From positions 20,873 through 84,872 of the forward strand of contig JAHFFE010000001.1 in NCBI GenBank assembly GCA_023248155.1: a stretch of 64,000 nucleotides of DNA. Reading direction: 5' to 3'. Position numbers and translations under genes: made by a program. The stretch is from Candidatus Omnitrophota bacterium (GTDB lineage Bacteria > Omnitrophota > Gorgyraeia > 1-14-0-20-64-10). The notes beneath the pieces are model-generated. The model saw only the letters and a program-made list of their open reading frames with translations, made no database searches and was not told the DNA's origin. This document shows, piece after piece, positions 8,026 to 58,907 of this stretch; position 1 is the stretch's first letter, and the number at the start of each line of letters is the position of its first letter.

Positions 8026-8727
8026 TTAGGAGGAGGGGTCTTGCGGTTTTTTAGCGAACGGTTGGTCTTTGAGCACAAACCGGACCGGAATTTTTATTTT
8101 CGATTCAACGGTCAGCATTCCGATATGAGCCGGATCAAATTTCCAACGGCGGATTGTTTTTAGCGACGACTCATCGAGCATTGGGAATCCGGAACTTTTC
8201 TCAATCTCCACTTGAGATGGCCGGCCGGACTTATCAACGGTAACGGCCAACAGCACGAGTCCCTCCTCGCCGCGCGCCAAAGAAGCCCAGGGATACGGCG
8301 GGGCCGGGTTTCTCAAATATTTCGATTTTCCCTCTGCAATTGCGCCGCCGGCAGAATAGAAGGTGGTGGGGTCATTGCCCGGCACCGGTGAACTGCCATC
8401 GCCGACCGGACCGCCTTTTTTCGCTTTCTCGACAGAATCGACAGTCGGCGTTTCTTGCGTGCCCCATTCATTATCGGTTTCAGTTTTTTCCGCTTCTTTT
8501 TGTTCCCGGCGATGGGCCACTGAAAGATCGGTCTGTTCCGCGTTCCCTTCGCGCGGTGCAGCAACTAACGAAATTTCAATGCCGCCGGTTCCGGCTTCCA
8601 CACCATACTGCGCCGGCCGAACAAACAGCACCCCGCCTCCTAAAAAAATCACGCCGTGTAAAATCAACGATCCAAAAATACCCAGGCGGTGGTCTTGTGA
8701 CGGGTTCGAAAGCGGCAACTGGAGCAC
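8026..8727 (-). CDS. tonB: Energy transducer TonB
   Basis: N-terminal TM segment, a Pro/Glu-rich spacer and the TonB C-terminal domain (GEEGLVLLAVTVDKSGRPSQVEI). A GTG at 8725-8727 follows the exbD stop by 4 nt and is preferred over the track start at 8850, which overlaps exbD by 119 nt. Confidence 0.6.
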   Translation of the reverse strand: MLQLPLSNPSQDHRLGIFGSLILHGVIFLGGGVLFVRPAQYGVEAGTGGIEISLVAAPREGNAEQTDLSVAHRREQKEAEKTETDNEWGTQETPTVDSVEKAKKGGPVGDGSSPVPGNDPTTFYSAGGAIAEGKSKYLRNPAPPYPWASLARGEEGLVLLAVTVDKSGRPSQVEIEKSSGFPMLDESSLKTIRRWKFDPAHIGMLTVESKIKIPVRFVLKDQPFAKKPQDPSS

Positions 8728-8731
8728 TGGT

Positions 8732-9163
8732 TTATTCGGTAGTTTGCCCGGCTGCCTTGGCGCCAGTGGTCTGAATTGCAAGTTTTTCAATACCCAGCTG
8801 GCGTACCTGATCCAGAATTTTAACCACATCGCCAAAATAAGCGGTTTCATCGGCGTTAATCAATACTTTCAGATCATCATTCTTCCGCTTCAGCGCTTTC
8901 AGACGGGACGGAACTTCATCGGCTTTCATTAATTCCCGGTTTAAATAAACGCGGCCGGCATCAGTCACCGTGATCGTCACAGAGGTGGTCCTTTGCTGAG
9001 ACTGGCCGGTGGAAGCTTTCGGCAAGTGCACTGAAACACCCTGATTTTTAACCATCGACAGCGACACCATCACGAACGTGGCCAGCAAAAAGAACATGAT
9101 GTCGATCAGCGGGATGATTTCGATGCGCGCGCGGCGGCGCCCCTGCTGGGATGGAATCCTCAT
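8732..9163 (-). CDS. exbD: Biopolymer transport protein ExbD/TolR
   Basis: 143 aa. IPLIDIMFFLLATFVMVS is the single TM of ExbD-family proteins. Confidence 0.8.
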   Translation of the reverse strand: MRIPSQQGRRRARIEIIPLIDIMFFLLATFVMVSLSMVKNQGVSVHLPKASTGQSQQRTTSVTITVTDAGRVYLNRELMKADEVPSRLKALKRKNDDLKVLINADETAYFGDVVKILDQVRQLGIEKLAIQTTGAKAAGQTTE

Positions 9164-9768
9164 TCGCGCCTTGCCGGTTCCATCAATAACAGTTCCAAAT
9201 GGGTCGACGCGTCTTCGATTTCACGTCGGGCTTCCTCGACGCGGGCATTCAGATAGTTAAACGGAATCAACGCGATAATTGCGATCGTCAAACCGAACGC
9301 CGTAGCGATCAGCGCTTCGGCGATGCCGCCGGTAATCGCGTCTGGAGCATCCAACTCCTGCGCTCCCAAAAGACCGAATGAACGGATCAATCCGGATACC
9401 GTGCCCAACAACCCCAGCAACGGCGCCAGCGTAATAATCGTATCGAGTATCGGCAATCCGCGGCTAAATCGTTGAAGTTCCCGCTCGGCCGCCTGCAGCA
9501 GCGCGCTCGAAAACGATTTGTTCCGGTGCTGCAATCCGTAAACCAGCGTGCGCGCGACGAAATCTTCAGAGTTTTTTCCGGTTTCAATCGCCTTGACCAT
9601 ATCGGCGTTTTCCGTCTGGCTCAGAATCTGGGCCACCACGGACGGATTGCGCGAATCCAGTTCCCGCAAAATAAAGATCACCCTCTCGATCACCACGGCC
9701 AGTGCCACAATCGATGTCAGCAACAAGGGCCACATGATCGGCCCGCCCTTCAGAAAAAAATCCAGCAT
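9160..9768 (-). CDS. exbB: MotA/TolQ/ExbB proton channel
   Basis: 202 aa. The TM architecture and the LGLLGTVSGLIRSF motif match the ExbB family. It overlaps exbD by 4 nt. Confidence 0.8.
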   Translation of the reverse strand: MLDFFLKGGPIMWPLLLTSIVALAVVIERVIFILRELDSRNPSVVAQILSQTENADMVKAIETGKNSEDFVARTLVYGLQHRNKSFSSALLQAAERELQRFSRGLPILDTIITLAPLLGLLGTVSGLIRSFGLLGAQELDAPDAITGGIAEALIATAFGLTIAIIALIPFNYLNARVEEARREIEDASTHLELLLMEPARRE

Positions 9769-9836
9769 CGTTCGCTCCCTTTATCTGTTTTTCTTTAACC
9801 GCCGCCAGGCCATCGCGCATCCAGTCCAGATCAACA

Positions 9837-10247
9837 TTATAACCCCGGCCGGCGAAATCGCCGCCGCTTGCGCCTAAAAAACAGGTGCCATGCGATCAGG
9901 AGCGGTGAGCCGAGCCCGAGAATGCTGTGCGCGGCGCTGGTCCACGCACGGAGAGTTTCATTTCCACTGTAATAGAGCCCGTATCCGGTCACAGCCAATC
10001 CGACCGTTACGGCAATAAGCGTATGGCCGCTGGCTAGATTCTTTCCGGCAGCCCTTCCTTTTTTAATATGGGTGGGGATCAAAACTCCAAACACCACCAG
10101 AAAAATCATGGCGGCGGCGCCGTGAATTGCCAGCAGCCATGGGATGGACAACCCGGGGCGATGGAAAATCCACCAAGCTCCTCCGGAGATCCATAGAATC
10201 CATCCGGTGTTATAAAACCAGATTTTCTGTCCCGGCGTGAGTTTCAT
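9837..10247 (-). CDS. His-rich polytopic membrane protein (DUF4405-like, putative haem-b binder)
   Basis: 136 aa with four TM helices and conserved His in TM segments (IFHRPG, AIHGAAAM, IPTHIKKG, IAWHLFF). Its stop overlaps the apbE start. Confidence 0.4.
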   Translation of the reverse strand: MKLTPGQKIWFYNTGWILWISGGAWWIFHRPGLSIPWLLAIHGAAAMIFLVVFGVLIPTHIKKGRAAGKNLASGHTLIAVTVGLAVTGYGLYYSGNETLRAWTSAAHSILGLGSPLLIAWHLFFRRKRRRFRRPGL

Positions 10248-11119
10248 AAACGATTCAGCGACAGTACGCCGCCGCTCTGGCTAAGAACAACTGCCGACGC
10301 CTGAAATTGTCGGAGAACCGGCTGAGGGAAGTCCGGATCAAGAATCACGGCTTTAGTCAGCGCGTCGGCAATAAGGCAGTCAGGTGCAAAAAGAGAAACG
10401 CTTCGACGGCCGATCATCGGTTTGCCGGAGGCGGGATGGATCAATGGGGAAACCCGGCGTTTTCGGAATTGCTTGGCGGAAAAATAAGGTGCCGAGGTGG
10501 CGACAGCTGTTTCACGAAATCGTCCGACACACATAAACTTGTGGGGGGCTCCGGGAAGTCGTATTTGCAGCGGATATTCGCGATTACCGAAAAATCTTAG
10601 GTCACCGCCGGCATTCACGCAACCATACGGCACCCCGTCATTCTTAAGACTTTTTACCATCTGATCGACGGAAAAGCCTTTCGCCACTCCTCCCAAATCG
10701 ATGCAAATGGGACGACGGAATCTCACCCGCCGATCGGGTTGCAGCTCGATATCCCCTGAATCGCCTCCATAATTTCCGGCAGCGGAGAGATGGCGCGGCA
10801 GGTAGCCCCACTCCATGAGCGTGGGCGCCACCGTGCAGTCAAACAATCCTCCCGTCGCCGACCATATTCTCTTGGCCATTTTCAAAACCTGATAGGTATA
10901 GGCGTGAACCTGAACGGGGGCTCTCCGCGCCTCACGGTTCAGAGAGTTCGTCTCACTATCGGCATCATGAAAGCTCATGAGCCGCTGAATCAACGCTCCT
11001 GTATCAAACGCCCGGCTCACCGCTTGCAGCAAACGCTCCCGACGGATCCCGCCGACCGAGATTTCGACAAATGTCCCCAACTGGGGTTTCATCCGCCTTA
11101 ATTCAATCACCGGATTCAT
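10244..11119 (-). CDS. apbE: FAD:protein FMN transferase ApbE
   Basis: 291 aa with the GGVAKGFSVDQ motif (ApbE GG[IV]AKG) and the overall ApbE layout. Confidence 0.8.
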   Translation of the reverse strand: MNPVIELRRMKPQLGTFVEISVGGIRRERLLQAVSRAFDTGALIQRLMSFHDADSETNSLNREARRAPVQVHAYTYQVLKMAKRIWSATGGLFDCTVAPTLMEWGYLPRHLSAAGNYGGDSGDIELQPDRRVRFRRPICIDLGGVAKGFSVDQMVKSLKNDGVPYGCVNAGGDLRFFGNREYPLQIRLPGAPHKFMCVGRFRETAVATSAPYFSAKQFRKRRVSPLIHPASGKPMIGRRSVSLFAPDCLIADALTKAVILDPDFPQPVLRQFQASAVVLSQSGGVLSLNRL

Positions 11120-11657
11120 GCGCCAAGATAATTTGATGTAAGGCCAGAAGCCGCTTCACCCCATCCGTAATATTACGGCACGAAAGCGTTGCCCCCGAAA
11201 TGTTTGGAATGTCCACCTCCAGCTTGAACGGGTCGCTGAGCGATTTCCCTTTAAAATGGCCTCTCCACTCGGCGTCCCGAACTTCTCCTCCGTGGGTTTC
11301 GCGATAACTCAAAATTTCAACGCCGATCACTTTTCCGTCGGCGGATAAGGCGGCGGCATAAGTAATAAATTCGTGCTTGCCGATCACCTCATCCACGATG
11401 AACCACCCCAAGAAACCACCCGCCTTCTCGACCCGCCAGACCCGCTGCTGGTCCCAGCGCTGGCTCATTCCCGAGATCGATTTGATTTGCTTCTTTTGGG
11501 AGGCCGTCAAAAGAACGGTGTGTTCTTTGAAAGTTCCCGCGTCGGGAAACAGCAGCTCTTGCGCCTGCGGAATGGATAGGTAATCCGCCGCGTAAACCGG
11601 GGCCACAATGGCCGCCGGCGACAACAGCGCTATCCGGACCCAGCTGCGCTTGTTCAC
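11103..11657 (-). CDS. Periplasmic FMN-binding domain protein (NqrC/RnfG-like flavinylation target)
   Basis: Signal peptide, then an FMN_bind-like domain carrying the flavinylation motif DIPNISGATLS ([S/T]GA[T/S]). Confidence 0.65.
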   Translation of the reverse strand: MNKRSWVRIALLSPAAIVAPVYAADYLSIPQAQELLFPDAGTFKEHTVLLTASQKKQIKSISGMSQRWDQQRVWRVEKAGGFLGWFIVDEVIGKHEFITYAAALSADGKVIGVEILSYRETHGGEVRDAEWRGHFKGKSLSDPFKLEVDIPNISGATLSCRNITDGVKRLLALHQIILAHESGD

Positions 11658-11659
11658 GA

Positions 11660-12562
11660 CTAAAAGTTAAAGCCGACTTTCAAGCGGACTTCTTGCTTGG
11701 TCTTTTCAATGAGGTGCAGATTGGAAATCGACTGATCCGCATATTCCTCGCCGCCTCCCGCGACCTGAGGGAACCAGGTCAGAGTCGCCCACCATTTCGA
11801 CCCGCCGTAATGGAGTGACGGCCCGGCAAACAAGCTCCATCGCTCCTGCCCCACCTCGGTCTCGAATTCCGTTTCATACAGCGTTTCCGCGCCGATAAAC
11901 CAGTTGGGGGCAAAGCGATAACTCAGTCCAGTCCCCAATTTAAATTCGAGTTCTACTTCAGGGTTTGTCGTCCATTCAAAATCCGTGGGCAGATCGTCAA
12001 TCTCACCCCGGACGGCATAAGTCCCCTCGGTGGCCGCATTCCAAACCCAAATCAGCTGCCCTTCCATAAAATATTTCTGAAGCTGGAGCCCCGTTTCGAG
12101 GGAAGCGGTATCTTTTTTTCGGCCCGAATGAGGATCCAGCCAGGCGTAGTCCAATCCAAGAGTGCCGGACAAACCGATATTGTCTTTTGCCGGGGCCAGG
12201 AAATTGTACTTCAGCGCCGCTTCCATCCCGGAAAGTTTAGGCCCATACTCCTTGTCACCAGGCAAATATCCGTCGATGACCAGCCCTTTGGTGTCAATGC
12301 TCTGAAAATTCAAGCCGCCGGTTGCCGATAAACGATGGGTGACGCCGTATTCCGCTTCGGCTTCCAGATTCCAAGCCGTGTAATCACCCCTGCCTTTGCC
12401 CGACCTGAGCGTGGTCACCTCATAGAGTTCCCATGCCCCTTTCGGCAGCGTTTCGGATCCCTTCACATAACCAAACAGGTTTTCGTCGGCAAATGCCGAT
12501 GATGCGAAAACTGCCACGCCCAGACACAACGCGAACCATTTCAAAAACTTCGTTAACTTCAT
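11660..12562 (-). CDS. Outer-membrane beta-barrel protein
   Basis: 300 aa with a signal peptide, alternating amphipathic beta-strand periodicity and a C-terminal ...KVGFNF ending in an aromatic residue. It heads the FMN-binding and ApbE operon. Confidence 0.5.
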   Translation of the reverse strand: MKLTKFLKWFALCLGVAVFASSAFADENLFGYVKGSETLPKGAWELYEVTTLRSGKGRGDYTAWNLEAEAEYGVTHRLSATGGLNFQSIDTKGLVIDGYLPGDKEYGPKLSGMEAALKYNFLAPAKDNIGLSGTLGLDYAWLDPHSGRKKDTASLETGLQLQKYFMEGQLIWVWNAATEGTYAVRGEIDDLPTDFEWTTNPEVELEFKLGTGLSYRFAPNWFIGAETLYETEFETEVGQERWSLFAGPSLHYGGSKWWATLTWFPQVAGGGEEYADQSISNLHLIEKTKQEVRLKVGFNF

Positions 12563-12563
12563 T

Positions 12564-12815
12564 CTAGGGATCTCCTTGTCTTTTTGTTTTCAGCGTGGGG
12601 GCGCTGGACGCAGAGGTCTCCGCCTTTCTATTCTTATAATTGTCGATTTGAATCACCACGACGCGCTTGCAGCGCGAGCACTTCAACTCCAGCGCGAACT
12701 CCGGCAGAAGCTTTGCCAACAAGCGGCCGCAGCCACAGCGCAGTTCAGAGCCGCACAAACTTACTTCGATTGATCCGCTCACGCTCGGCTGCCGGAAGCT
12801 GCCTGAACCATCCAT
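12564..12815 (-). CDS. Mu Com-like zinc-finger small protein
   Basis: LRCGCGRLLAKLLPEFALELKCSRCKRVVVI matches the Com family C-x2-C...C-x2-C zinc ribbon. The true start is probably an internal TTG giving about 63 aa. Confidence 0.35.
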   Translation of the reverse strand: MDGSGSFRQPSVSGSIEVSLCGSELRCGCGRLLAKLLPEFALELKCSRCKRVVVIQIDNYKNRKAETSASSAPTLKTKRQGDP

Positions 12816-12997
12816 CCGCCTATGCCCGGACGCAGCACGATCAATCCTTCCTTATATAAACATCCGAGCGCCATCAGAAGCAGATCGCGTGAACAGGAAC
12901 GCGAATCCGCAAGCGCTTCAGCCGGCAGCTTCCCTCCGCCGCGTTCCAAAGCCAGTAAAATTTCTCCGGATAAAATGCTCACTTCCGTGATGCTCAT
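12779..12997 (-). CDS. Small winged-helix (DUF2582-like) protein
   Basis: 72 aa. DLLLMALGCLYKEGLIVL resembles the conserved LMALGWL.REGKI helix of small wHTH proteins. It overlaps the Com-like ORF. Confidence 0.3.
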   Translation of the reverse strand: MSITEVSILSGEILLALERGGGKLPAEALADSRSCSRDLLLMALGCLYKEGLIVLRPGIGGWMVQAASGSRA

Positions 12998-13140
12998 TGG
13001 ATTCGCCTCAAAAAATGGTCGGCACGCGACGCAGGGTTATTCGGGGTCTCGCCATTCGGTATGATATTGAGACTTAATCTCAATTAGAGCACCGAAAGGC
13101 GCCTCTGTCAAGATTATTTTTTAAGCGGGACTTTCTCTAT

Positions 13141-13308
13141 TTAATCAGCATTAAGAACCGGCCCCTTGTGATGGGCGCAGGTGCAGCCGGTATCTTCGGC
13201 GCAGCCACGGCAGCAATAATTATCTCCGTCGTCCATGTAACCTTTGCCGCCGTCCTCCCAGCTCTTGTCTTGCTGCATTCCGCAATTCGGACAACTTAAC
13301 TTTGGCAT
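13141..13308 (-). CDS. Bacterial metallothionein-like Cys-rich small protein (SmtA/BmtA-like), 55 aa
   Basis: Hand translation of a sub-60-aa ORF gives MPKLSCPNCGMQQDKSWEDGGKGYMDDGDNYCCRGCAEDTGCTCAHHKGPVLNAD. A GAGGG Shine-Dalgarno lies 6 nt upstream. The motif DG.NYCC.GCAE resembles the SmtA core GLYYCSEACADGH. The ORF is not in the supplied track. Confidence 0.5.
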   Translation of the reverse strand: MPKLSCPNCGMQQDKSWEDGGKGYMDDGDNYCCRGCAEDTGCTCAHHKGPVLNAD

Positions 13309-13310
13309 CG

Positions 13311-13742
13311 TCAGACCCTCCTCTTTCTGAAGAACGTGTGGCTTCCTATTTTGACGGTCACTTCCATCTCTTTGGCCCAGCGAGGGAGGCCGAATTGTTC
13401 CACGTTTTCAAAGTGGGTGGCATTGCGCGTCAGATTAGATCCCTCCCGCGCTTTCTGGAGCGCCCGCCTTGCCTGCTGACGGGTCCAGTCCGGCTGTGCC
13501 AGCAAAAACTGATCGAGGTCCTTCCGCTGAATCCCTGAAAATCCGCGCACGCTCCATTCGCGGTTGCGCAGGACCTCCGCCACTCCGACCTTGCCTTCAT
13601 ACGGCTCTCCGGCCGCTTCTGAAATAATGACGGCCTCCAGAGTACTCTCCCGCCGCTGATCCACATGGGCCATCGCACTCCGTGCGATCAGGAGACTGCT
13701 CACCAAGAAACCGATCCCATAGAATACGGTGTTCTGTTTCAT
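13311..13742 (-). CDS. SleB-type cell-wall hydrolase domain protein
   Basis: Signal peptide and the Hydrolase_2 motif AVIISEAAGEPYEGKVGVAEVLRNR. Confidence 0.6.
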   Translation of the reverse strand: MKQNTVFYGIGFLVSSLLIARSAMAHVDQRRESTLEAVIISEAAGEPYEGKVGVAEVLRNREWSVRGFSGIQRKDLDQFLLAQPDWTRQQARRALQKAREGSNLTRNATHFENVEQFGLPRWAKEMEVTVKIGSHTFFRKRRV

Positions 13743-13787
13743 GGCTGTTCACGGCTTTCGCCGCTCGTAGGGCGGAATAGGTCCTCA

Positions 13788-14156
13788 TCAAATTCGCGGC
13801 ATCTCGACGCCGACGAAGATGGACCGCGCGATGAACCTTCCGCCGATGACCTGGTACTGAACTTTCACTTCTTTCCCGACTGACAATTCTTCCGGTTTCA
13901 ATCGGAGGCCATCCGAAGAAATAATGGACGTCTCCTTATCAAATAAGAAACTGATTCTTCCGGCGCTGTTATTCTCGGTGTCGCCGGAAGCCGGGTAACG
14001 CATCGGCGGTTTTTGCACCGTCAATGTTCCGTGGGTCCGGTCAACCAGAGAAACTTTCCCGGTGGCGACCTGCTGCTGAGAGTCCGCCAGCGGCAGCGCA
14101 TAAGCACTGCCAACGCTTAACAAAAAAATAAGCGCGCCCGCAATCAATCTTTTCAT
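13788..14156 (-). CDS. Periplasmic beta-rich protein, paralog of 14186-14608
   Basis: Signal peptide (MKRLIAGALIFLLSVGSAYA). GKVSLVDRTHGTLTVQ...KVQYQVIGGRFIARSI echoes KVHYKVHGDKRVATSV in the neighbouring gene. The start is taken at the internal Met. Confidence 0.45.
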   Translation of the reverse strand: MKRLIAGALIFLLSVGSAYALPLADSQQQVATGKVSLVDRTHGTLTVQKPPMRYPASGDTENNSAGRISFLFDKETSIISSDGLRLKPEELSVGKEVKVQYQVIGGRFIARSIFVGVEMPRI

Positions 14157-14185
14157 GGTTCCACCTCTTTTTTTTAAGCTCTTCT

Positions 14186-14608
14186 TTAAGGCAGCCCCGG
14201 ACTCTTCCAATCGTTCATGGCGGGGGCAAATCGGGCTGCGGGCATCTGAATTGAGACCGATGTCGCCACCCGTTTATCGCCATGAACTTTATAGTGCACC
14301 TTGACGCGCTGGCCGCGCACCAGCTCCTGAAGCGAGGCGACCTGTCCCTCGAGTAAAACAACGGTCTCCGCGGAATCCAGCACCACATCGACAACGGCAC
14401 TTTCCCCCGTATTCAGACGCAGCGTCAGGGAGGAATGATCCGGCTGCAGAGATTCAATGGTGCCCTCGGCGCTCCCTGAATAATAGGCGGTTGATAAACT
14501 GTTGTTGTTGCAAGAAGCTAACTCCAGCGTATTCACAACAACGATCCCCGCCATGATCACCACAGGTATCCATAGAAGCCTTTTTGTCTCGCTTTTTATC
14601 GGTCTCAT
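14186..14608 (-). CDS. Lipoprotein, paralog of 13788-14156
   Basis: LASC lipobox. GTIESLQPDHSSLTLRL...VKVHYKVHGDKRVATSVSI suggests an OB-fold-like periplasmic domain. It lies downstream of the two-component system. Confidence 0.45.
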   Translation of the reverse strand: MRPIKSETKRLLWIPVVIMAGIVVVNTLELASCNNNSLSTAYYSGSAEGTIESLQPDHSSLTLRLNTGESAVVDVVLDSAETVVLLEGQVASLQELVRGQRVKVHYKVHGDKRVATSVSIQMPAARFAPAMNDWKSPGLP

Positions 14609-14719
14609 CGGAGTACCTCCTTCCAATACTTTTCTCGCTATCCAATAGGAGATTACCGCATGAAGATAAAGCGAGGGTGAACTTTGCGTTACAACTTATT
14701 TATCTGAGACCGGTTCTAA

Positions 14720-16228
14720 TCAGCCGACAGGCGGCGGAACAGAGGGAAACCGGACGGTAAAAATGGCGCCCTGCCCGGGAGGACTTGCGGCGGAAATCTG
14801 TCCACTGTGTACTTCGACAATCCAACGGCACAAACCAAGACCCAAGCCTGTGGATGGCATTTCGCTTTTTGAAGATTTTTTTCTGAAAAATCGATCAAAA
14901 ATATGCGGGAGTTCTTCGGAAGAAATTCCATTGCCCGTGTCGCGCACTATAAGGCAGGCTTCTTTTTCCTGCAAACCCACCGTGAGTGTAATGACCCCGT
15001 GGGCAGGCGTATGCTTGATCGCATTATCCAGAAAATTGACTATCAGCCGTTCCAGCAAAAGGCGTTCGGCCTGGATCCAAACCGTTTGACGGTTTTGAAT
15101 TTCGATCTGCACTAATTTTTTGCTGGCGATTTCCTGCCAGACAGTGCTGATTTTTCTTACCATGGCGTTTAAATTCACCAGCTCCCATTTCAGCGCCGTT
15201 TCAACCGCTTCGTTGTGCGCCAGCATCAACAACTCTTCAATGATGGCCGACATGGCTTCGGCTTTCTGCAGATGCATTTGCAGGACCCGCTGATACTCCT
15301 CGGGAGTCCGGGGCCTTCGCAGCGCTACTTCCAATTAGCCGCGAATCACCGTCAGCGGCGTGCGCAATTCGTGGGAAGCCGCGGCGCTGAATTGACGCAG
15401 CCGCCGGAAATCATTTTGGAGCCGCGCCAGCATATCATTGAGCGTCAACGACAGATCTTTTAATTCATCGGATGTTTCCGGAACGAAAATCCGTTCTTCG
15501 AGGCGCTGAGAGCTGATCCGTTTCGCCTGGGCAATCATAACGCCTACCGGTTCCAGCGCGGTAGCCGCCAGAAACAAACCGGCAGACCGGGCCGCGATCA
15601 GAATGGCTGGGATCAGCACCACCAATGAAAAAAGAAGCCGGTCGGCCAGAGAACCGGCCTGCTTCATAGAAACCGCCACCTGAACTAAATAGAGTATTCG
15701 GTCATTTTCAATCACGGGCCGCGTCACGACCCGGATTCGCTGGTCTTTTCTTTTAAAAGTTTCGTAGACTGTGTTTTTCTTCAGGCCTTCTGTTATAGCG
15801 TAGGGCGTCAATGGCAGATCCATCTGCCGAAAATTTTGCGAGGCGGTTAACAGGTGCCCGGCGCCATCCACCACCCGGAACCGCCGTTCTGCCGTTAAGG
15901 TGTCGGTTTGCCGGGCCCAGCGGCGCAATAACCCCGGAAGCTCCCCCTTTCCAACGCCCCCCGGAATGGCCACGGCCGGGGCATACTCCCAATTGCCTCG
16001 GGTTGCGTGGGTTGTTGATTGTTCCGCTTCACGGAAAGCAAAAATGGTGCCGGCGATATAGTCGGCCCTTAACACGAGCGTCTTATCGATATCCCGTGTA
16101 AGCCCCGTCACGACGGTCAGATAGAGAGCTCCGCCAAACAAAATCAGGATGGCCGCGAGGATCCGGATATACCAGAGCGTTAACACTTCCCGGATGGATT
16201 GCGGACCGGCTCTATTATTGATCATCAA
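14720..16228 (-). pseudogene. Sensor histidine kinase (periplasmic sensor, HAMP, HisKA, HATPase_c) interrupted by one in-frame TAA at 15335-15337
   Basis: Track ORFs 15335-16228 and 14720-15334 are in the same frame. Minus-strand reading gives ...SHELRTPLTVIRG-TAA-LEVALRRPRTPEEY..., and the stop sits where Tyr or Glu normally follows the H-box. The downstream part carries the N, G1 and G2 boxes (DTGNGI, GLGLGL). Confidence 0.5.
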
Positions 16229-16260
16229 TCGTTGCCCTTCGGTTTACAGGCAGGCGGGAC

Positions 16261-16941
16261 TCATTTCGTTTCGGGGGTTTTCAGCATATAGCCGCTGTCC
16301 CGAACCGTATGAATCAGTTTTTGATCAAAACCGTCATCCACTTTTTTGCGAAGGCGCGCGATGTGCACATTAATCACATTGGAGAATGTGTCGAAATCGT
16401 GCTCCCACACCTGCTCGGACAGCATGGTTCGCGTGACAACCTGGTTGGCATGGCGCAAAAAATATTCGAGGATGGCGAATTCGCGGCCGGTCAGCTTCAA
16501 TTCGCGCCCGCCGCGCGTAACGCGATGGCGCAGCAGATCCATCTGCAGATCATCGACAGTCAAAACGGTGGAGACGACATCACCCCGCCGGCGGAAGAGC
16601 GCCCTGAGCCGGGCCAGCAGCTCACTGAACTTAAACGGCTTGGTCAGATAATCATCGGCTCCCAAGTTGAGACCGGTGACTTTGTCTTCAAGCCGGTCTT
16701 TCGCGGTAAGAATCAAAACAGGAAGGGTCAGGCGTTTTGCGCGCAGAGTTTTAAGAACTTCAAGACCGCCCACCTTGGGAAGCAGCAGATCCAGAATGAT
16801 TAAATCGTATTTCTCCGTTTCGGCAAGAAAAAGGGCTTTCTCGCCGTCCGGCGCGAGGTCAACCGTGTAATGCTCTTCGCGCAGTCCGCGACGAATAAAA
16901 CTGGAGACCGCCGAATCATCCTCTACCAGAAGAATGCGCAT
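16261..16941 (-). CDS. OmpR-family response regulator
   Basis: 226 aa with a receiver domain (LVEDD...DLIILDLLLP...TAKD) and a winged-helix trans_reg_C domain. Confidence 0.85.
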   Translation of the reverse strand: MRILLVEDDSAVSSFIRRGLREEHYTVDLAPDGEKALFLAETEKYDLIILDLLLPKVGGLEVLKTLRAKRLTLPVLILTAKDRLEDKVTGLNLGADDYLTKPFKFSELLARLRALFRRRGDVVSTVLTVDDLQMDLLRHRVTRGGRELKLTGREFAILEYFLRHANQVVTRTMLSEQVWEHDFDTFSNVINVHIARLRKKVDDGFDQKLIHTVRDSGYMLKTPETK

Positions 16942-17052
16942 AAGAACCTCCTGAGAAATTATAACGCAGATAAATAATCTGTAACCTAAAATTCATCCGG
17001 TTTTTATCTGGCCAGGCTAAATTTATTCTAAGAAAAGGAGGCGCGCACAACC

Positions 17053-17292
17053 ATGAGCCATAGAACCCTTTTAAAAAACAGTCTCTCCAGAACCAATGCG
17101 GCGCACGCGGAAGAAATTTCCGTTTTTTACCGTCCCCGGTGCGGCTGTCATTTTTGCGTGTCGATTCGGCACACGGCGGAATCTGACCAGATTCATCGCC
17201 GCTTGGCCGAGGCAGCAGCCTCTGGGGATGAAATTTGGTACAGCCGGATTCTGAAGGAATTCGGAGCACAGCGCTTAAAAGCGGCCTTTTGA
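17053..17292 (+). CDS. Hypothetical small protein
   Basis: 79-aa ORF preceded by a strong AAGGAGG Shine-Dalgarno. It is divergent from the response regulator and contains a CGCHFC motif. No family recognised. Confidence 0.3.
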   Translation: MSHRTLLKNSLSRTNAAHAEEISVFYRPRCGCHFCVSIRHTAESDQIHRRLAEAAASGDEIWYSRILKEFGAQRLKAAF

Positions 17293-17294
17293 TT

Positions 17295-17750
17295 TCAACG
17301 CGCCAGCGCAATGGCTTCCACAATTTCGGCTAACTCACGCTCAACGGTACGCTCATCCACCGATCCTTGAATCTGCTTGGCATAAAGAGCAATATCCTTA
17401 AGCGACAAAATACCCACCAATTTCTCATCTTCGGCAACCGGCAGCCGATGGATGGCCGCCAATTCCATCAACTCGACCGCCTCTTCCACGCTCAGGTCAG
17501 GAGAAATCGTTTTCACTTCGCGTGTCATGCAGGCACTCACCGGCACCTGAGCCGCCGGAAGCGGTTCTTGCGACAGGCAGAGCGCCAAATCGCGGTCGGT
17601 GATGACCCCTACAATTTTCCGGGTCTGATGGTTCTCTACCACAGGCACGATCCCGCAATTGTGCTGCCGCATGATCTTGCCGGCAACCGCGCAATTATCT
17701 TTCGGCGTGCAGGCGGCCGGGTCAACCGTCATTAGCTCTCGAACTTTCAT
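17295..17750 (-). CDS. CBS domain pair protein
   Basis: Two CBS motifs (...GIVPVVENHQTRKIVGVITDRDL... and ...HRLPVAEDEKLVGILSLKDI...). The start is taken at MKVRELMTVDP rather than the longer track N-terminus. Confidence 0.65.
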   Translation of the reverse strand: MKVRELMTVDPAACTPKDNCAVAGKIMRQHNCGIVPVVENHQTRKIVGVITDRDLALCLSQEPLPAAQVPVSACMTREVKTISPDLSVEEAVELMELAAIHRLPVAEDEKLVGILSLKDIALYAKQIQGSVDERTVERELAEIVEAIALAR

Positions 17751-17781
17751 GGGATATCCCCCTTTGTTGGCGATCATTGAT

Positions 17782-17934
17782 TTATTCCTCGCAGCTGGTG
17801 CAGGAGCAAACACAGCGGGTTCCTTCCGCGCAGCCCTCGCAACAATACAGGTCTTCCCCATCCTGAAACCCTTTCTCCTGCATCCACTGCTCGCAGGTTT
17901 TTCCGCACCCGCAACAAACCCTTTGTTCGCTCAT
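17782..17934 (-). CDS. Bacterial metallothionein-like Cys-rich small protein, 50 aa; paralog of 13141-13308
   Basis: Hand translation gives MSEQRVCCGCGKTCEQWMQEKGFQDGEDLYCCEGCAEGTRCVCSCTSCEE, with an AAGGAGGA Shine-Dalgarno 7 nt upstream. The block DG(D/E).(L)YCC(R/E)GCAE(D/G)T.C.C is shared with the first copy. The ORF is not in the supplied track. Confidence 0.5.
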   Translation of the reverse strand: MSEQRVCCGCGKTCEQWMQEKGFQDGEDLYCCEGCAEGTRCVCSCTSCEE

Positions 17935-17949
17935 GGACGGTTTCCTCCT

Positions 17950-18315
17950 TTATAAATCTTCCACGACAAATTCCGGCTCCATGACCGGCGCGTATCGCGC
18001 GGGAACCGGCACCGGGAATGTGATAATCTCGTAAGCGCCAATCACCGAACGGGCCACCGCGAAACCGATGCCTTTGACAAATCCCCAGGTTAAGCCCGCA
18101 CCCGGTCCATCCGCTTTCCATGAATCGGACATCTGATTTGGAATCTCCAGCCAGCCAGTGGCCGCATTAGCGATTCCGCGAAATAGTTTATGGCCCATGC
18201 CAGATCCGGTTGTTTTTGGCTGAGTAACGACGGTTTCCTCCGCAAAACCAGCCGCTATCCCAACCATCAGAACCGCTATTATTCCCAACGCAACCATTCC
18301 TATGGTTTTACGCAT
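17950..18315 (-). CDS. Small secreted protein, TIGR04073-like (putative exosortase-system-associated family)
   Basis: 121 aa with a signal peptide and KLFRGIANAATGWLEIPNQM...YEIITFPVP, matching my recollection of that family's conserved KL.RG..N...GW.EIP and TFP segments. Confidence 0.4.
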   Translation of the reverse strand: MRKTIGMVALGIIAVLMVGIAAGFAEETVVTQPKTTGSGMGHKLFRGIANAATGWLEIPNQMSDSWKADGPGAGLTWGFVKGIGFAVARSVIGAYEIITFPVPVPARYAPVMEPEFVVEDL

Positions 18316-18523
18316 GAGAAATCCTCCTTTTTTCTATTTCTAATTTTTTATCCAATCTTCTGTTGTCTGGTTGAATTATAGGGAATGAAAATAACGGGTA
18401 AGTGACTTTGACGTGACAGAATTGTAATTGAATGGACTGGAATCCTAAGATTTTTACACATTTTTCGGCAGAGATCAGGTAGACTTCATCTGCAAACCCA
18501 AATTCCACGCTTGGGGGAGGTGT

Positions 18524-20968
18524 TTGATGGGGTTTTTTGCACTGCCGGAATTTCAAATGGCTCCGTACGCCGCTCCACCTGTTTTTGTTGGAATGGCCGG
18601 TTTCTTTTTAGCTGTTTTTGTCCTCTTGCGTGAACGCTTTTCCCGCGCCAGCCTTCTGTTTGCCGCCTCCTGTTTTAGCGTCATGCTCTGGCTGGTTTCC
18701 TATGCCGGAATCTACGGCAGCGCCAATGCCGCCGACGCGCTGGCCTGGGTACGCCTGGAGCATGTCGGCGTTTCATTCATTCCTGCGGCGCTGACGCTTC
18801 TGAGTTTCAGCATCACCGGGCAGTTCCACCGGTTTCGGATCTGGTGCGCAGCGATAGTATTCTTATCCGTCGGATTTTGCATGCTTGCGCTTTTTAGCGA
18901 CCTCTTTATCGACGGCTTAATCCGATACCCCTGGGGTTATTACAAACATTACGGCCCGATGGGGTTTCCGTTTCTTGTTTTTTTCTTCGGATCGCTGGTT
19001 TTATCGTTCGTCAATTACTGGACCGAACTTCACCGCACCGAATCAAAGCAGCGTAAAAAACGGCTGCGCTGGCTGCTGATCAGCCTCTCCATCGCCTATC
19101 TAGGCTCAATCGATTACCTGCCGGCCTACGGAATTCCGGTTTATCCTATTGGTTTTCTTCCGGCATTTATTTCAATGATCCTGCTGGCTCGGACCATCTG
19201 GCGCTATCGCCTGGTGGATATGGCTTCCGCGCTGGCCGCAGGACCGATCTTGCGAATGATGCCCTCGGCCTGCCTGGTCGTCGATGCGGAAGGGATCATT
19301 CAGATTGCCAACCCGTCGGCGCTGGCGATGTTCGGCTTTTCCGAAGAGGAGCTGATTGGGATGCCGCTGCGAAAATTGACAGAACTTCCCAAAGAAGCCC
19401 TTTCGCTGCCGGCAGCCGGGTCGCCGCCGCTGAGTTACGCTTCCGAATGGCAGCGGAAGCGGGGCGCGCCGATTGCCGTCAGCGTATCGGCCTGCAAGTT
19501 AACAATGGGCCGACAGAAATCGGTCGGCTCGATTTACATCGCGCTTGATATGACCGAACAGAAAAAAGCCCAGCAAGAATTGCGGGAAGCCCACGATCAG
19601 CTGGAAATCCGCGTGCAGGAACGGACAGCCGATCTGATGTCCGCCAACGAACGATTGAAGTCGGTGACGCGCGCGCTGCGCGACACCAGCGTCCGGTTAA
19701 AAACAATGGCGCTGCTGGATCCGCTGACCGAACTGCTCAATCGCCGGGGCCTTGAAGAAATTCTGGTCCGCGAAGCGGCCCGCGCGCGGCGAGAAGGCAC
19801 CCCGATGCTGGCAATCCTTGTCGATCTGGATGACTTCAAGAAAATCAACGACACGCTGGGCCACGCGGTGGGCGATCTGGTGCTGAAAGAAACGGCGCGC
19901 TGCCTGAAAACATCGCTGCGCGGAACCGATCAGGCCGGCCGGATCGGCGGCGATGAATTCATGGTGTTGCTTCCGCAGACACGCGCCGCGGAAGGCGTTC
20001 AGGTGGCCGAAAAACTGCGTCTGGCCATCGCGCAAACGGCCATTGTTCTTTCGGAAAAAGAAACGGTGCGGGTCACCGGCAGCTTGGGCTTGATTAACGT
20101 GGGAACCCAGATGGCCTCCATTGATAAACTGCTGGCCGATGCGCATCGGGCTCTTTACCAAAGCAAATTCTCAGGAAAAAATCAGGTCACTTTCGATGAA
20201 GATCCCGGGTCGCCGGAACGGCCCCGGCCCGACCGTCTGGATGAGACGCTGCGCGAACTGTGCCGCGACGACCGTTACGTTGCGCTTGCGCAGCCGATCC
20301 TGCGCTTAAGCGACCGGCGTGAAATAGGCGTGGAGATGCTCTGCCGCTCTACAGTCGCTTCGTTCGAAATGCCTGATGATTTTTTCCGGCTCTGCATGGA
20401 AGCCAAGGCATTGACGCTCGTGGACCATATTTGTCTGAAAAAATGTTTGGAGGCAGCCCATCAACTGCGGCCGGAGCTGTGGTGCCATATCAACCTGTTT
20501 CCGTCGACGATCGCCAACACGCCGCTGACGCAGCTGCTGGACCTGTTTCATCAGATTCGCCCAGACAACCGGTTCTGCGTGGAAATCAGCGAGCAACAGA
20601 TTATCGGAGATCCTTCGTATTTAAAAAAACCGGTGGAAGCCTTGCGGCGGGCCGGAATCCGCGTGGCGATGGATGATGTCGGGTTTGGCCGCAGCTGTTT
20701 GGAAAGCCTGATCTTGCTGGAGCCTGACATCATTAAAATCGACAAACGGTGCGTTCAAGGAATCGATAAGGACGGTTGGATGGAGCGGTCCATCAAACGG
20801 ATGGGCAGCATCGCGCAGAGTCTGGGAACAGAGGTAATCGCCGAAGGGATTGAATCATCGGAGGAATTAGCCTGCATCAAAGCGGCCGGACTCCATTACG
20901 GACAAGGGTTCCTGCTGGGCAAGCCGGTCCCGCTCAAAAAAGCGGCGGTTCTATCCTCCCTCAAGTAA
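18524..20968 (+). CDS. Membrane sensor diguanylate cyclase/phosphodiesterase (7TM, PAS, GGDEF, EAL)
   Basis: 814 aa with about seven N-terminal TM helices, a PAS domain, a coiled-coil linker and a GGDEF domain (RIGGDEF). The EAL domain carries variant motifs (EML for EAL, DDVGFG for DDFGTG; KIDK and EGIE retained). Confidence 0.85.
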   Translation: MMGFFALPEFQMAPYAAPPVFVGMAGFFLAVFVLLRERFSRASLLFAASCFSVMLWLVSYAGIYGSANAADALAWVRLEHVGVSFIPAALTLLSFSITGQFHRFRIWCAAIVFLSVGFCMLALFSDLFIDGLIRYPWGYYKHYGPMGFPFLVFFFGSLVLSFVNYWTELHRTESKQRKKRLRWLLISLSIAYLGSIDYLPAYGIPVYPIGFLPAFISMILLARTIWRYRLVDMASALAAGPILRMMPSACLVVDAEGIIQIANPSALAMFGFSEEELIGMPLRKLTELPKEALSLPAAGSPPLSYASEWQRKRGAPIAVSVSACKLTMGRQKSVGSIYIALDMTEQKKAQQELREAHDQLEIRVQERTADLMSANERLKSVTRALRDTSVRLKTMALLDPLTELLNRRGLEEILVREAARARREGTPMLAILVDLDDFKKINDTLGHAVGDLVLKETARCLKTSLRGTDQAGRIGGDEFMVLLPQTRAAEGVQVAEKLRLAIAQTAIVLSEKETVRVTGSLGLINVGTQMASIDKLLADAHRALYQSKFSGKNQVTFDEDPGSPERPRPDRLDETLRELCRDDRYVALAQPILRLSDRREIGVEMLCRSTVASFEMPDDFFRLCMEAKALTLVDHICLKKCLEAAHQLRPELWCHINLFPSTIANTPLTQLLDLFHQIRPDNRFCVEISEQQIIGDPSYLKKPVEALRRAGIRVAMDDVGFGRSCLESLILLEPDIIKIDKRCVQGIDKDGWMERSIKRMGSIAQSLGTEVIAEGIESSEELACIKAAGLHYGQGFLLGKPVPLKKAAVLSSLK

Positions 20969-21643
20969 GCGCAGCAGCAGCATCACCACCATTCCAATAA
21001 TCACCAGCGCGACCACCTTCCAATTGAAAGTCCGGTGCGCCTCCGGCAGCAGGTCCGCCGCCCCGATATAAATAAAATCTCCGGCGATAAATGCCAGCAT
21101 TTTTTGCTGGAATCCATCCGGAATCGCTCCGGCCGCCAGCGCGCCGATTGGATACAACAGGCTGGCAGCGGCCAACACCCAAAGCATCGTCGACTGTTTC
21201 CACCCGGCCTCTTTCATGATCAGCGCTGAAGTGATCCCCTGTGGAATTTCATGCAGCACCACGGCAATCGCAATCGACGCGCCCAGCCAGGGATTGACCT
21301 GGTAGCCAACGACGATTCCCGCCCCATCCACGACATTATCCATCGCCATGCCGAGCACGGCCACCGGCCCAATCCGATGCGTGTGGCATTCGTCCTCACC
21401 GCAAGCGTGGATCATCATGAATTTCTCCAGCAGATAGAAGACCATGAACCCCAGCGTCACATACAGCGAGTTGGATTTCACATCGGCCTCGGGGAGCACA
21501 TGGAAAAATGCAGCTGCCAGCAGCATGCCGGCCGCCAGCGCGATGATGTAGCGCGGCTGTATTTTGGTGGTCCAGCCCCGCAACGCCAGCCATCCGGCAA
21601 TCAGGTCGAATGACCCGGCGATCAACGCGTAAAGATGCCCCAT
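20951..21643 (-). CDS. ZIP-family divalent metal (zinc) transporter
   Basis: 230 aa with the HEIPQG motif and a His-rich loop (HACGEDECHTHRIG). Confidence 0.8.
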   Translation of the reverse strand: MGHLYALIAGSFDLIAGWLALRGWTTKIQPRYIIALAAGMLLAAAFFHVLPEADVKSNSLYVTLGFMVFYLLEKFMMIHACGEDECHTHRIGPVAVLGMAMDNVVDGAGIVVGYQVNPWLGASIAIAVVLHEIPQGITSALIMKEAGWKQSTMLWVLAAASLLYPIGALAAGAIPDGFQQKMLAFIAGDFIYIGAADLLPEAHRTFNWKVVALVIIGMVVMLLLRLLEGG

Positions 21644-21644
21644 G

Positions 21645-22172
21645 TTAGTGCGGTTTTTCGCCGTAAAGTTTCAGCGCGACAGAGTTGATGCAGTACCGTT
21701 TCCCGGTCGGCGGCGGGCCGTCGTCAAAGACATGGCCCAGATGCGCGCCGCAGCGGGCGCAGAGCACTTCGACGCGGCGCATGCCGAAACTGGAATCGTC
21801 CTTGCTTTTCACGTTCAGCGGCGAGACCGGGTCCCAAAAACTGGGCCAGCCGGTGCCCGACTCAAATTTCTCGCCGACGGCGAAAAGGTCGGTGCCGCAG
21901 CCGACGCATTGATAAATTCCCTTGCCGGAAGCCGGAATCGCGCAAACATTGGAAAACGGCTGTTCGGTTCCTTTGCGGCGGGTCACTTCGTACTGTTCAG
22001 GCGTCAGCTGTTTTTTCCATTCGGCGTCCGATTTGATCACCGGCGCCATCTGTTCCGTTTTGCCGGTCCGCGCGTTGTAAATTTCAATCGTTTCCGTCAT
22101 TTTTGTTTTCGCACCCAGAAAGATTCCGGTGGCTCCCAGTAATATGAGGGTTGCAATCGTCTGTTTTTTCAT
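21645..22172 (-). CDS. msrB: Secreted peptide-methionine (R)-S-oxide reductase MsrB
   Basis: Signal peptide, then two CxxC zinc pairs ([21 protein letters not shown]) and GWPSF. Confidence 0.85.
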
Positions 22173-37490: not shown

Positions 37491-38057
37491 TTAGCCGGCC
37501 TTGGTCGGATCCAGCGTTGTTAATATCTTTGCCAGATCGTCGGCATGTTCTTCTTCAGACGCCAAAATTCCTTCCAGCATCCGCCGCGTCGTCGGATCAT
37601 TTTCTCCAAGATAACGGATCATTTCCGAGTACGATTCAATGGCGATTCGCTCGGCAACCAAATCTTCCTCGACCATGCTGATCAATGAGTCGCCTTCTTT
37701 GTACTCCGAATGACTCCGGGTCGTCAGCCCTTCCGGATTAAAATTGGGCTCCCCCTGCAATTGCGTGATGCGCGCAGCGATCTGATCGGCATGGGCTTGT
37801 TCTTCATTGGTATGCTCAAGAAATTCCTGCGCAACCGGCTCGGCATGAATTCCTTGCGCCATATAATAATGACGTTTGTAGCGGAGCACGCAGACAATCT
37901 CCGTGGCCAGCGCTTCATTCAGCAGTCGGAGCACTACATCGCGCTGGGCTTTGTACCCTTCCGTGACGGAACCCTGCTTAATATGCTTGCGCGCGCGAAG
38001 CCTTAACTCTTTGATGTCAGAGAGGAAACCGTTCGTTGTTGGTGTTGTTTTAGACAT
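37491..38057 (-). CDS. bfr: Bacterioferritin / ferritin-like di-iron protein
   Basis: VVLRLLNEALATEIVCVLRYKRHYYMAQG...EEQAHADQIAARI gives the Bfr ferroxidase ligand pattern (E...ExxH...E...ExxH). Confidence 0.7.
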   Translation of the reverse strand: MSKTTPTTNGFLSDIKELRLRARKHIKQGSVTEGYKAQRDVVLRLLNEALATEIVCVLRYKRHYYMAQGIHAEPVAQEFLEHTNEEQAHADQIAARITQLQGEPNFNPEGLTTRSHSEYKEGDSLISMVEEDLVAERIAIESYSEMIRYLGENDPTTRRMLEGILASEEEHADDLAKILTTLDPTKAG

Positions 38058-40433: not shown

Positions 40434-40507
40434 TGGTTGCCCCGCCTGGATTCGAACCAGGACAAGCAGATCCAGAATCTGCTGTGCTACCGTTACACCA
40501 CAGGGCA
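40434..40507 (-). tRNA. tRNA-Gln (anticodon CUG)
   Basis: Hand-folded cloverleaf: 7-bp acceptor stem (one G-U pair), D-arm, anticodon stem GCAGA/TCTGC with loop TTCTGGA (anticodon CTG), perfect T-stem CCTGG/CCAGG with TTCGAAT loop, and an encoded CCA. Confidence 0.8.
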
Positions 40508-45768: not shown

Positions 45769-46067
45769 ACTCAATGACCGGCAGCTGGCTGTCCTGCAAA
45801 ATAGTCCGGTGAATTCTTATCCGGAACATCATCGGCATATCATGCCGGACCCTTTAGCTTTGCGTCCCTATCTTTCGATCTGCGCCCTTTTTTCATGTAA
45901 GCGCATTCATCCGGCGCTGTGCCGTATGAAGGTTTGCCGAAAACACGGCCTGAGTTGGCAACCACTTACTACGGGTATTATCCAGGCAAACGAAATATAC
46001 CTGATACTTTTATACAATGGCAAGAGTGCAAAAATATTTTAGTGGAATAAAACTTTATCTAGGGAGG

Positions 46068-58625: not shown

Positions 58626-58783
58626 TCGTTGCCATCAATTCAGGAGAAGGATAAGCCCCGCCTGCGCCGTGTGCGGATGAATCATGAACCTGGTTTGACC
58701 AAGTTGGGAACCCGCTCACCTGTTTCTTGCTTCCCTCCCTCGACGGGTGGGCCTGCACTCCGCAGATGAAGACAAGCTCCCTT

Positions 58784-58811
58784 TTGATTCTGACTGTTGG
58801 TTCAGAATCAA
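58784..58811. promoter_or_regulatory. Perfect 10-bp inverted repeat TTGATTCTGA-N8-TCAGAATCAA in the rarA/HemJ-like divergent intergenic region
   Basis: Read directly from the sequence. It lies about 100 nt upstream of the plus-strand start at 58908. Confidence 0.3.
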
Positions 58812-58907
58812 TCCGCCAAACACGCACGCCACAGGGCCACTTCCCTTATACCACGCCTTTTGCTACAGTAAAAGCGAACTTCGACCCACTAAAAAGGAGG
58901 TTGCGCA

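Follow-up and report, generated by a model that had tools for sequence, protein, structure and literature searches.

The ORF1 and ORF2 genes

The stretch of DNA considered here, referred to throughout as the window, comprises 64,000 nucleotides (nt) of contig JAHFFE010000001.1 (positions 20,873 to 84,872 of the forward strand) from the Candidatus Omnitrophota bacterium assembly GCA_023248155.1, and carries two short open reading frames (ORFs), named ORF1 and ORF2, which encode small cysteine-rich proteins. Judging by their sequences, the two belong to an unnamed seven-cysteine family that is related to, or convergent with, the core of the BmtA/SmtA bacterial metallothioneins. The two genes and the start signal of the first are as follows:

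13141-13308, minus strand: ORF1, 55 amino acids (aa), translation MPKLSCPNCGMQQDKSWEDGGKGYMDDGDNYCCRGCAEDTGCTCAHHKGPVLNAD; the exact protein is among NCBI/ENA/Logan gene calls and is the top match of the family profile search
17782-17934, minus strand: ORF2, 50 aa, translation MSEQRVCCGCGKTCEQWMQEKGFQDGEDLYCCEGCAEGTRCVCSCTSCEE; BLASTP paralog of ORF1 and second-best match of the family profile search
13317-13322, minus strand: Shine-Dalgarno sequence of ORF1, AGGAGG, read from the sequence; 8 nt 5' of the ATG and within the 3' end of the SleB-like gene

An earlier note on this DNA had described a 55-aa cysteine-rich frame at 13141-13308 with a Shine-Dalgarno sequence, leaving its strand unstated, and a paralog with the same core at 17782-17934. 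The peptide was reproduced exactly and lies on the minus strand, as does the paralog, the plus-strand frames at both sets of coordinates containing no ORF. The proteins share 14 of 24 core residues (BLASTP E=2e-8), and the motif occurs nowhere else in the window. The description of the first frame as unannotated holds for the first-stage ORF track only, since NCBI, ENA and Logan assemblies already include the exact proteins of ORF1 and ORF2 among their gene calls, without a name. ORF1 contains seven cysteines and a His-His pair (7 Cys and 2 His in 55 residues, 16%), and the TRASH-like spacing which the note had pointed out is indeed there, as C6-x2-C9-x22-C32-x3-C36. ORF2 contains 11 cysteines in 50 residues (22%), more than any other of the 151 family representatives examined, its four cysteines additional to those of the seven-cysteine family occupying non-homologous positions.

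The ATG of ORF1 is found 2 nt past the stop codon of the preceding SleB-like gene, an arrangement which suggests translational coupling, and ORF1 is probably coupled to that gene. ORF2 is preceded by the Shine-Dalgarno sequence AAGGAGG, its ATG following the stop codon of a TIGR04073 gene by 15 nt. No riboswitch or other RNA element was found near either gene in an Rfam search.

A perfect 7-bp inverted repeat, ATTGAGA-N5-TCTCAAT, is located at 13066-13084, within the 143 nt that separate ORF1 from the next gene, a 72-aa ORF (12779-12997), and a short way downstream of the hexamer TTGACA (13106-13111); it may be a candidate operator.

A conserved family of uncultured bacteria

Short ORFs are plentiful by chance in this part of the window (positions 9000-22000 are overlapped by 117 ORFs that are 40 aa or longer), so that conservation is the real test of gene status. 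A family profile built from ORF1, ORF2 and two relatives was searched against 1.84 billion representative proteins and retrieved 425 of them at E<=1e-3, of which 42 had E<=1e-10, the earlier note having named conservation of the ORF in related genomes as a point on which its reading would turn. The full pattern C-x2-C-x19-25-CC-x2-C-x5-C-x-C is present in 145 of the 151 best matches, and exactly seven cysteines in 136 of the 151. The family consensus reads CPxCGMxxxxWxxxxGxGYxxxGxxYCCxGCAEGTGCTC, with conserved aromatic residues at W16, Y24 and Y31, and the domain, of about 40 residues, can be recognised by the signature C-x2-C-x19-25-(Y/F)CC-x-GCAEGTGC-T-C. The ratio of non-synonymous to synonymous substitution rates (dN/dS) in the core has a median of 0.066 (944 pairs from 72 genomic copies); the family is genuine and under strong purifying selection. 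That ORF1 is an untranslated product of chance or of the gene caller might be suspected from a length of only 55 codons in a region so rich in chance ORFs, yet homologous clusters numbering in the hundreds across phyla, the invariant cysteine pattern and the low dN/dS speak against it, as do the strong Shine-Dalgarno sites and a confident AlphaFold2 core. Conservation and selection together effectively refute this explanation, to which we attach a negligible probability.

A genome scan covering one genome per species, with the trimmed core alignment as query, located 76 loci, all of them, as judged from record titles, in metagenome-assembled or uncultured genomes. These are dominated by Verrucomicrobiota (Udaeobacter, Chthoniobacterales), the remainder being found in Chloroflexota, Dormibacterota, Acidobacteriota, Gemmatimonadota, Planctomycetota, Elusimicrobiota, Binatia and Armatimonadota, and the family extends over at least nine bacterial phyla. 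Within the large protein collection each named member is called 'hypothetical protein' and none carries a precomputed Pfam domain. In searches with ORF1, ORF2 and 150 relatives, neither Pfam nor NCBIfam proved to have a model for the family, and what the relatives drew from NCBIfam was faint zinc-ribbon noise of a generic kind (Lar, PP0621). PDB sequence searches with a single protein and with two profiles returned nothing significant, and the motif was not found in print in the literature searched. No domain fusions were found among the relatives, the longer of which gain low-complexity tails only.

Among the longer relatives, a subfamily of about 118 aa (P0014, P0166, P0177, P0200, P0219 and others, at loci L008-L079; P0200 is Verrucomicrobiae-named) has a conserved hydrophilic C-terminal extension, GFSRxGQKLTRAEPRPGEQRSGAPAPxGELSGERDxxGTEEAxDQ, which has no Pfam match. 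An N-terminal NPNETxG motif is common to several other relatives.

Comparison with the BmtA metallothioneins

Site A of SmtA is presumably formed by four cysteines, two of them N-terminal and the others C32 and C36, and we take the further ligands of its cluster to be C16, H40, C47, H49, C52 and C54. The hallmarks of BmtA proteins are a fully conserved zinc-finger site A and a CH-pi contact of Y31 and A37, hairpin to helix (PMC3323870), and cluster size varies among them, with Zn4 in SmtA and Zn3 in the PflQ2 metallothionein (MT), which is without site C (PMC10612145). For comparison with the family, a BmtA reference set of 73 sequences was used, consisting of SmtA, PflQ2 MT and 71 sequences from metagenomic loci; the SmtA sequence, both in this set and as quoted in the earlier note, is identical to that of PDB 1JJD. 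Structures of BmtA proteins include 1JJD (SmtA) and 6GV6, 6GV7 and 6GRV (PflQ2 MT).

Of all Pfam families, PF02069 (Metallothio_Pro) matches the most relatives (39/150 at E<=1, the best at 3.6e-4), followed by DUF7836 with 8/150. Alignment of the family core with the 73 BmtA sequences by hhalign gave a local probability of 61.7% (P=7.7e-5) and a score of 25.2, which none of 200 column-shuffled BmtA controls reached (mean 10.4, standard deviation 2.3, maximum 18.8), so that the similarity is not a by-product of cysteine-rich composition. A hidden Markov model (HMM) of our own built for BmtA gave 99 of 266 family cores a score of 8 bits or more, as against 3 of 2,660 shuffled decoys.

The hhalign alignment pairs K-G-Y-M-D-D-G-D-N-Y-C-C-R-G-C-A-E-D with SmtA K-A-I-D-R-N-G-L-Y-Y-C-S-E-A-C-A-D-G, and the family T-G-C-T-C with SmtA T-G-C-N-C. 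SmtA C32 and C36 fall exactly on family cysteines, and C52 and C54 are kept as family C42 and C44, the set of extra ligands being otherwise not retained: a 9-residue BmtA segment containing H40, C47 and H49 is missing, the gap lying exactly between CAEG and TGCTC. The N-terminal cysteine pair is invariant in the family and, although spaced CxxC unlike its counterpart in SmtA, is paired by hhalign with SmtA C11 and C14. The BmtA fold markers Y31, C32, C36 and A37 are all invariant or nearly so and the terminal TGCxC is kept; Y31 is invariant in family alignment A1, conserved at about 90% or more in alignment A3 and Y or F across the wider family, and A37 does not vary in A1 or A3 and shows conservation of 90% or more in A2.

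The family resembles BmtA/SmtA in consisting of small, cysteine-rich, cytosolic proteins of about 50 residues with a predicted zinc-finger core made of an N-terminal cysteine knuckle, a beta-hairpin ending in the aromatic Y31 and a helix C32-x3-C36-A37, followed by an acidic residue and glycine after the helix and by a C-terminal TGC-x-C. It differs in its knuckle, which is CPxCG (CxxC) rather than C-x-C-x2-C-x-C, in the additional Cys33 that creates a CC doublet, in its conserved tryptophan and in a longer loop ahead of the hairpin. Its taxa also differ, being uncultured genomes, mostly of Verrucomicrobiota, whereas characterised BmtAs are cyanobacterial or pseudomonad. By one screening rule, metallothioneins have at least 10% Cys/His and at least two metal-binding motifs (PMC11705764), and ORF1 (by its Cys and His together) and ORF2 (by its Cys) both fall within the operational description of a metallothionein as a small, cysteine-rich protein with CxC/CxxC motifs.

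By all measures run, BmtA/SmtA is the closest known family. No score reached the thresholds of Metallothio_Pro or of the TRASH-clan families, which places the seven-cysteine family outside both as currently defined. The likeness to SmtA/BmtA proposed in the earlier note therefore stands for the architecture of the core, on which the Pfam, hhalign and structural comparisons agree, and not for membership of the BmtA family, given the scores below cutoff and the absent H40/C47/H49 segment.

Predicted fold and comparison with other zinc fingers

AlphaFold2 models computed with the family alignment reached a pLDDT score (predicted local distance difference test) of 78.9 for ORF1, with 84-91 in the core, and of 78.8 for ORF2, and in both a beta-hairpin spans residues 24-31, with a short helix after it at 34-37. 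A Foldseek search of 350,542 PDB chains with the ORF1 model returned PflQ2 MT at rank 1 and SmtA at rank 5, interleaved with MYND fingers and eL24/Rlp24. With the ORF2 model, it returned eL24, the zinc-binding domain (ZBD) of ClpX, MYND fingers, PflQ2 MT (ranks 6 and 13) and the TRASH domain of ZMYM5. Since other fingers score about equally with metallothioneins, the fold evidence is for a treble clef and not specifically for a metallothionein; the models support a treble clef of the TRASH/MYND/BmtA kind, a class within which the structure search cannot separate.

The TRASH motif, reportedly defined by Ettema et al. in 2003 as C-x2-C-x19-22-C-x3-C, recurs in the family when spacing is counted from the first cysteine of the CC doublet, mostly with x19-x22 and in a few members with up to x25. 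The family is like TRASH-type domains and MYND fingers in this spacing and in its predicted topology of knuckle, hairpin and helix. TRASH domains, however, have four ligands for one metal site, while the family has three further invariant cysteines and the signature YCC-GCAEG...TGCTC, and its HMM match to none of the TRASH or MYND families is significant. No TRASH-clan profile in Pfam matches ORF1 or ORF2, and none of the clan's models (YHS, Arc_trans_TRASH, zf-FCS, L24e) is among the 25 Pfam families most often matched by the 150 relatives.

In an alternative explanation, the domain is a structural finger of the TRASH/MYND type, with one or two zinc sites formed by cysteines and a conserved glutamate or a ligand from a partner, and the micro-protein would act as a small regulator or adaptor and not in storing metal. 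Its partner would be a protein or nucleic acid, for example the probably co-transcribed CBS-pair protein beside ORF2. The match to the TRASH spacing, the retrieval by Foldseek of MYND, eL24/Rlp24, ZMYM5 and ClpX domains, the invariant number and spacing of the cysteines and the conservation of W16, Y24 and Y31 are all in keeping with such a role, as are the long, disordered hydrophilic tails of many relatives, the tight linkage of ORF2 to the CBS-pair gene and the lack of a conserved metal-homeostasis neighbourhood. On the other hand, TRASH-clan models are missing from the 25 most-matched Pfam families whereas Metallothio_Pro is matched by 39 relatives, the three invariant cysteines left over once a single site has its four ligands require another metal site, and the CBS linkage is seen in only 1 of 72 loci. 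We regard a structural finger as unlikely, though it is the most serious of the competing explanations.

Gene neighbourhood in the window

ORF1 and ORF2 flank, on one strand, a two-component system of the CopRS/CusRS type, ORF1 standing at the 3' end of the gene string. Read from 18315 to 13141, all on the minus strand, the order is TIGR04073, ORF2, CBS-pair gene, promoter-like site, response regulator, kinase, two unknown genes, SleB-like gene and ORF1, and the same gene order is present in three independent assemblies. The features other than ORF1 and ORF2 are:

17950-18315, minus strand: TIGR04073 exosortase-system-associated protein (NCBIfam TIGR04073, 98.8 bits, cutoff 50)
17295-17777, minus strand: CBS-pair protein (Pfam CBS, 95 bits)
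16985-16958, minus strand: promoter-like site upstream of the response regulator gene, from the sequence
16261-16941, minus strand: OmpR-type response regulator, best match TIGR01387 heavy-metal response regulator (CzcR/SilR/CopR), 260.4 bits, cutoff 279.2
14720-16228, minus strand: sensor histidine kinase, best match TIGR01386 heavy-metal sensor kinase (CztS/SilS/CopS), halves of 85 and 165 bits, cutoff 292.6
13788-14626, minus strand: two unknown proteins of 140 and 146 aa between the kinase and SleB-like genes, with no Pfam or NCBIfam match
13311-13742, minus strand: SleB-like cell-wall hydrolase (Hydrolase_2, Pfam PF07486, 41 bits), directly upstream of ORF1

One candidate ATG of the CBS-pair gene lies 4 nt past the stop codon of ORF2, a gap that makes co-transcription of the two genes probable. 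The 140- and 146-aa proteins are weakly paralogous (BLASTP E=4e-6) and have hydrophobic N-termini; they may be periplasmic parts of one operon with their neighbours. Possible repeat elements were seen both 5' of the regulator gene and upstream of the ORF2 unit, but they are too weak for a CopR/CusR box to be claimed.

The earlier note had also placed a ZIP transporter, MsrB and bacterioferritin in the same part of the DNA. The first two are there, at 20951-21643 and 21645-22172, 3-4 kb away, whereas the only ferritin-like gene found (37491-38057) is about 20-24 kb distant. The two-component system, along with the nearby ZIP and MsrB genes, is the only local evidence tying ORF1 and ORF2 to metals.

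A metagenomic relative, P0007 (142 aa), has an N-terminus, MRVREVMAADVEVV..., which resembles the start of the window CBS-pair protein, MKVRELMTVDPAAC..., and could be the remnant of a CBS-finger fusion; no CBS domain was detected in it by Pfam.

Neighbourhoods of the relatives

Across 72 loci, no partner gene recurs between phyla, and the window neighbours (CBS, two-component system, SleB-like and TIGR04073 genes) are not conserved beside the relatives. One neighbour alone recurs, a 2-oxoacid:ferredoxin oxidoreductase in convergent orientation, which is found at 23 of the 72 loci and is read as gene order inherited within one clade. Pfam assigned 127 neighbours from 40 loci to 92 families, none with more than four members. 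Since there is neither a conserved partner nor an enrichment of metal-homeostasis genes, a conserved 'metal operon' was rejected as evidence.

A few relatives adjoin genes for ferritin/rubrerythrin-like, DUF1328, DUF3185 or small hydrophilic proteins, or for trehalose or glycogen metabolism, which gives a faint hint of a general-stress setting. Such neighbours are what might be expected of a thiol-based redox or general-stress protein, or of a small carrier of an Fe-S or other cofactor, with cysteine oxidation or cluster binding under oxidative or desiccation stress, and both the MsrB gene near the window copies and the pyridine-nucleotide-disulphide oxidoreductases, which are among the commonest neighbours although only 4 of 127, point the same way. 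The neighbourhood signal is weak and heterogeneous, though, searches of Pfam, NCBIfam and the PDB revealed no resemblance of the proteins to known families of Fe-S or redox proteins, and the hairpin-helix model is that of a zinc finger; a redox or stress role of this kind appears improbable, distinctly more so than a structural finger.

In two unrelated relatives, a ferritin-like gene adjoins the family gene: at locus L160 (2915-3478 and 3793-4518, with Ferritin/Rubrerythrin Pfam matches) and at locus L021 (3134-3667). The L160 family gene also adjoins genes for DUF1328 and for a 56-aa Lys/His-rich hydrophilic protein. These neighbours hint weakly at a setting of stress or iron storage.

A predicted metal-thiolate cluster

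The interpretation we favour is that the family is a reduced, BmtA-like treble-clef zinc finger which is predicted to hold a small metal-thiolate cluster, a proposition for and against which we find the evidence evenly balanced. That the proteins bind metal ions at all is an inference, though a probable one. The domain would fold as a treble clef like the SmtA/BmtA core, with a CxxC knuckle, a hairpin ending in Y31 and a helix bearing C32, C36 and A37. In this fold, C6, C9, C32 and C36 would hold a first metal ion in a structural site, and C33, C42 and C44, together with a bridging thiolate or a conserved glutamate, would form a second site, giving a two-metal thiolate cluster with probably two divalent ions per domain. 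Without the segment that carries H40, C47 and H49, seven ligands remain as compared with 11 in SmtA, and the predicted cluster is therefore smaller, at about two metals instead of three or four. As with the gamma-domain of wheat Ec-1 and minimal Zn2Cys6 metallothionein domains, two divalent ions are expected to sit in a thiolate-bridged cluster of six or seven cysteines within a very small domain, a likeness in mechanism only. The protein would then serve as a minimal BmtA-like buffer or sequestration protein for Zn or Cd, possibly for Cu, and ORF2, whose 11 cysteines equal the ligand number of the SmtA Zn4 cluster, could hold a larger cluster. Expression in response to metal stress, possibly under the adjacent two-component system, would be the most likely setting, since the copies bracket a CopRS/CusRS-type system and the start of ORF1 is probably coupled in that string.

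Several observations weigh against this metallothionein-type interpretation. Neither ORF1 nor ORF2 matches Metallothio_Pro, YHS or TRASH models even at E<=10 in Pfam and NCBIfam, the profiles with which the earlier note had suggested its assignment be checked, and the best match of the window proteins is DUF7836 at E=0.19. Relatives scanned singly against PF02069 score 13.7-17.3 bits, the cutoff being 33 bits, and our own BmtA HMM gives only 2.4 and 3.1 bits on ORF1 and ORF2, respectively. The hhalign probability of 62% is suggestive and falls short of proof. All Foldseek E-values are 0.5 or higher, as is expected for a domain of only about 40 residues, and MYND, eL24/TRASH, ClpX-ZBD and LIM fingers score about level with metallothioneins. 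The rigid, invariant pattern of seven cysteines with a conserved Trp and Tyr is compatible with a two-site zinc finger of purely structural function as well. The 127 neighbours of relatives show no enrichment in metal-homeostasis genes, and ArsR/SmtB, P-type ATPase and CDF families are all missing from the 25 commonest neighbour families listed. In the window itself, the matches of the response regulator and the kinase to TIGR01387 and TIGR01386 are both under the curated cutoffs, and the kinase is interrupted by a TAA codon at 15335-15337 (minus strand). At that codon, an assembly made independently for this organism (L001) reads GAA (Glu), the sole difference in 4,509 aligned nt, and the TAA could be an inactivating strain polymorphism or an assembly error.

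In bacteria, metallothioneins are considered rare and patchy in their taxonomic distribution, with BmtA in cyanobacteria and pseudomonads and MymT in mycobacteria. More boldly, the family might be an unrecognised and widespread class of minimal bacterial metallothioneins, with a BmtA-derived core and a two-metal Cys7 cluster, which would be the main metallothionein-type buffer of uncultured phyla (Verrucomicrobiota, Chloroflexota, Dormibacterota, Acidobacteriota, Gemmatimonadota), ORF2 being a naturally expanded 11-cysteine form; this we put forward tentatively, as rather less likely to be right than wrong. If the minimal-metallothionein interpretation is true, bacterial metallothioneins reach far beyond cyanobacteria, pseudomonads and mycobacteria, and if the seven-cysteine proteins bind metal clusters, a pared-down form of the SmtA zinc-finger and cluster design would be common in the uncultured majority of bacteria. 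Metallomics would then gain a natural scaffold, minimal at about 40 residues, in which to study a zinc finger turning into a cluster, and metagenome studies an added marker gene for metal buffering. Should the domain instead be a structural finger, it would still represent an uncharacterised micro-protein family of hundreds of clusters with no database model, and a family definition is deserved under either interpretation.

Other features of the window

Upstream of the TIGR04073 gene, positions 18524-20968 encode a GGDEF-EAL-PAS protein with seven transmembrane segments (7TM). Downstream of ORF1, a gene string at 8026-12562 (minus strand) encodes a DUF6662 outer-membrane barrel, an FMN_bind protein and ApbE, all three assigned by Pfam, and a 136-aa membrane protein, and ends with ORFs that, read by eye, resemble ExbB, ExbD and TonB; from this content, the string has the look of an energised module for redox reactions or for uptake at the outer membrane. 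Rfam matches at gathering level, all on the minus strand, were obtained for a c-di-GMP-I riboswitch (45777-45896, 37.8 bits), 6S RNA (58651-58840, 85 bits) and a tRNA (40437-40507).

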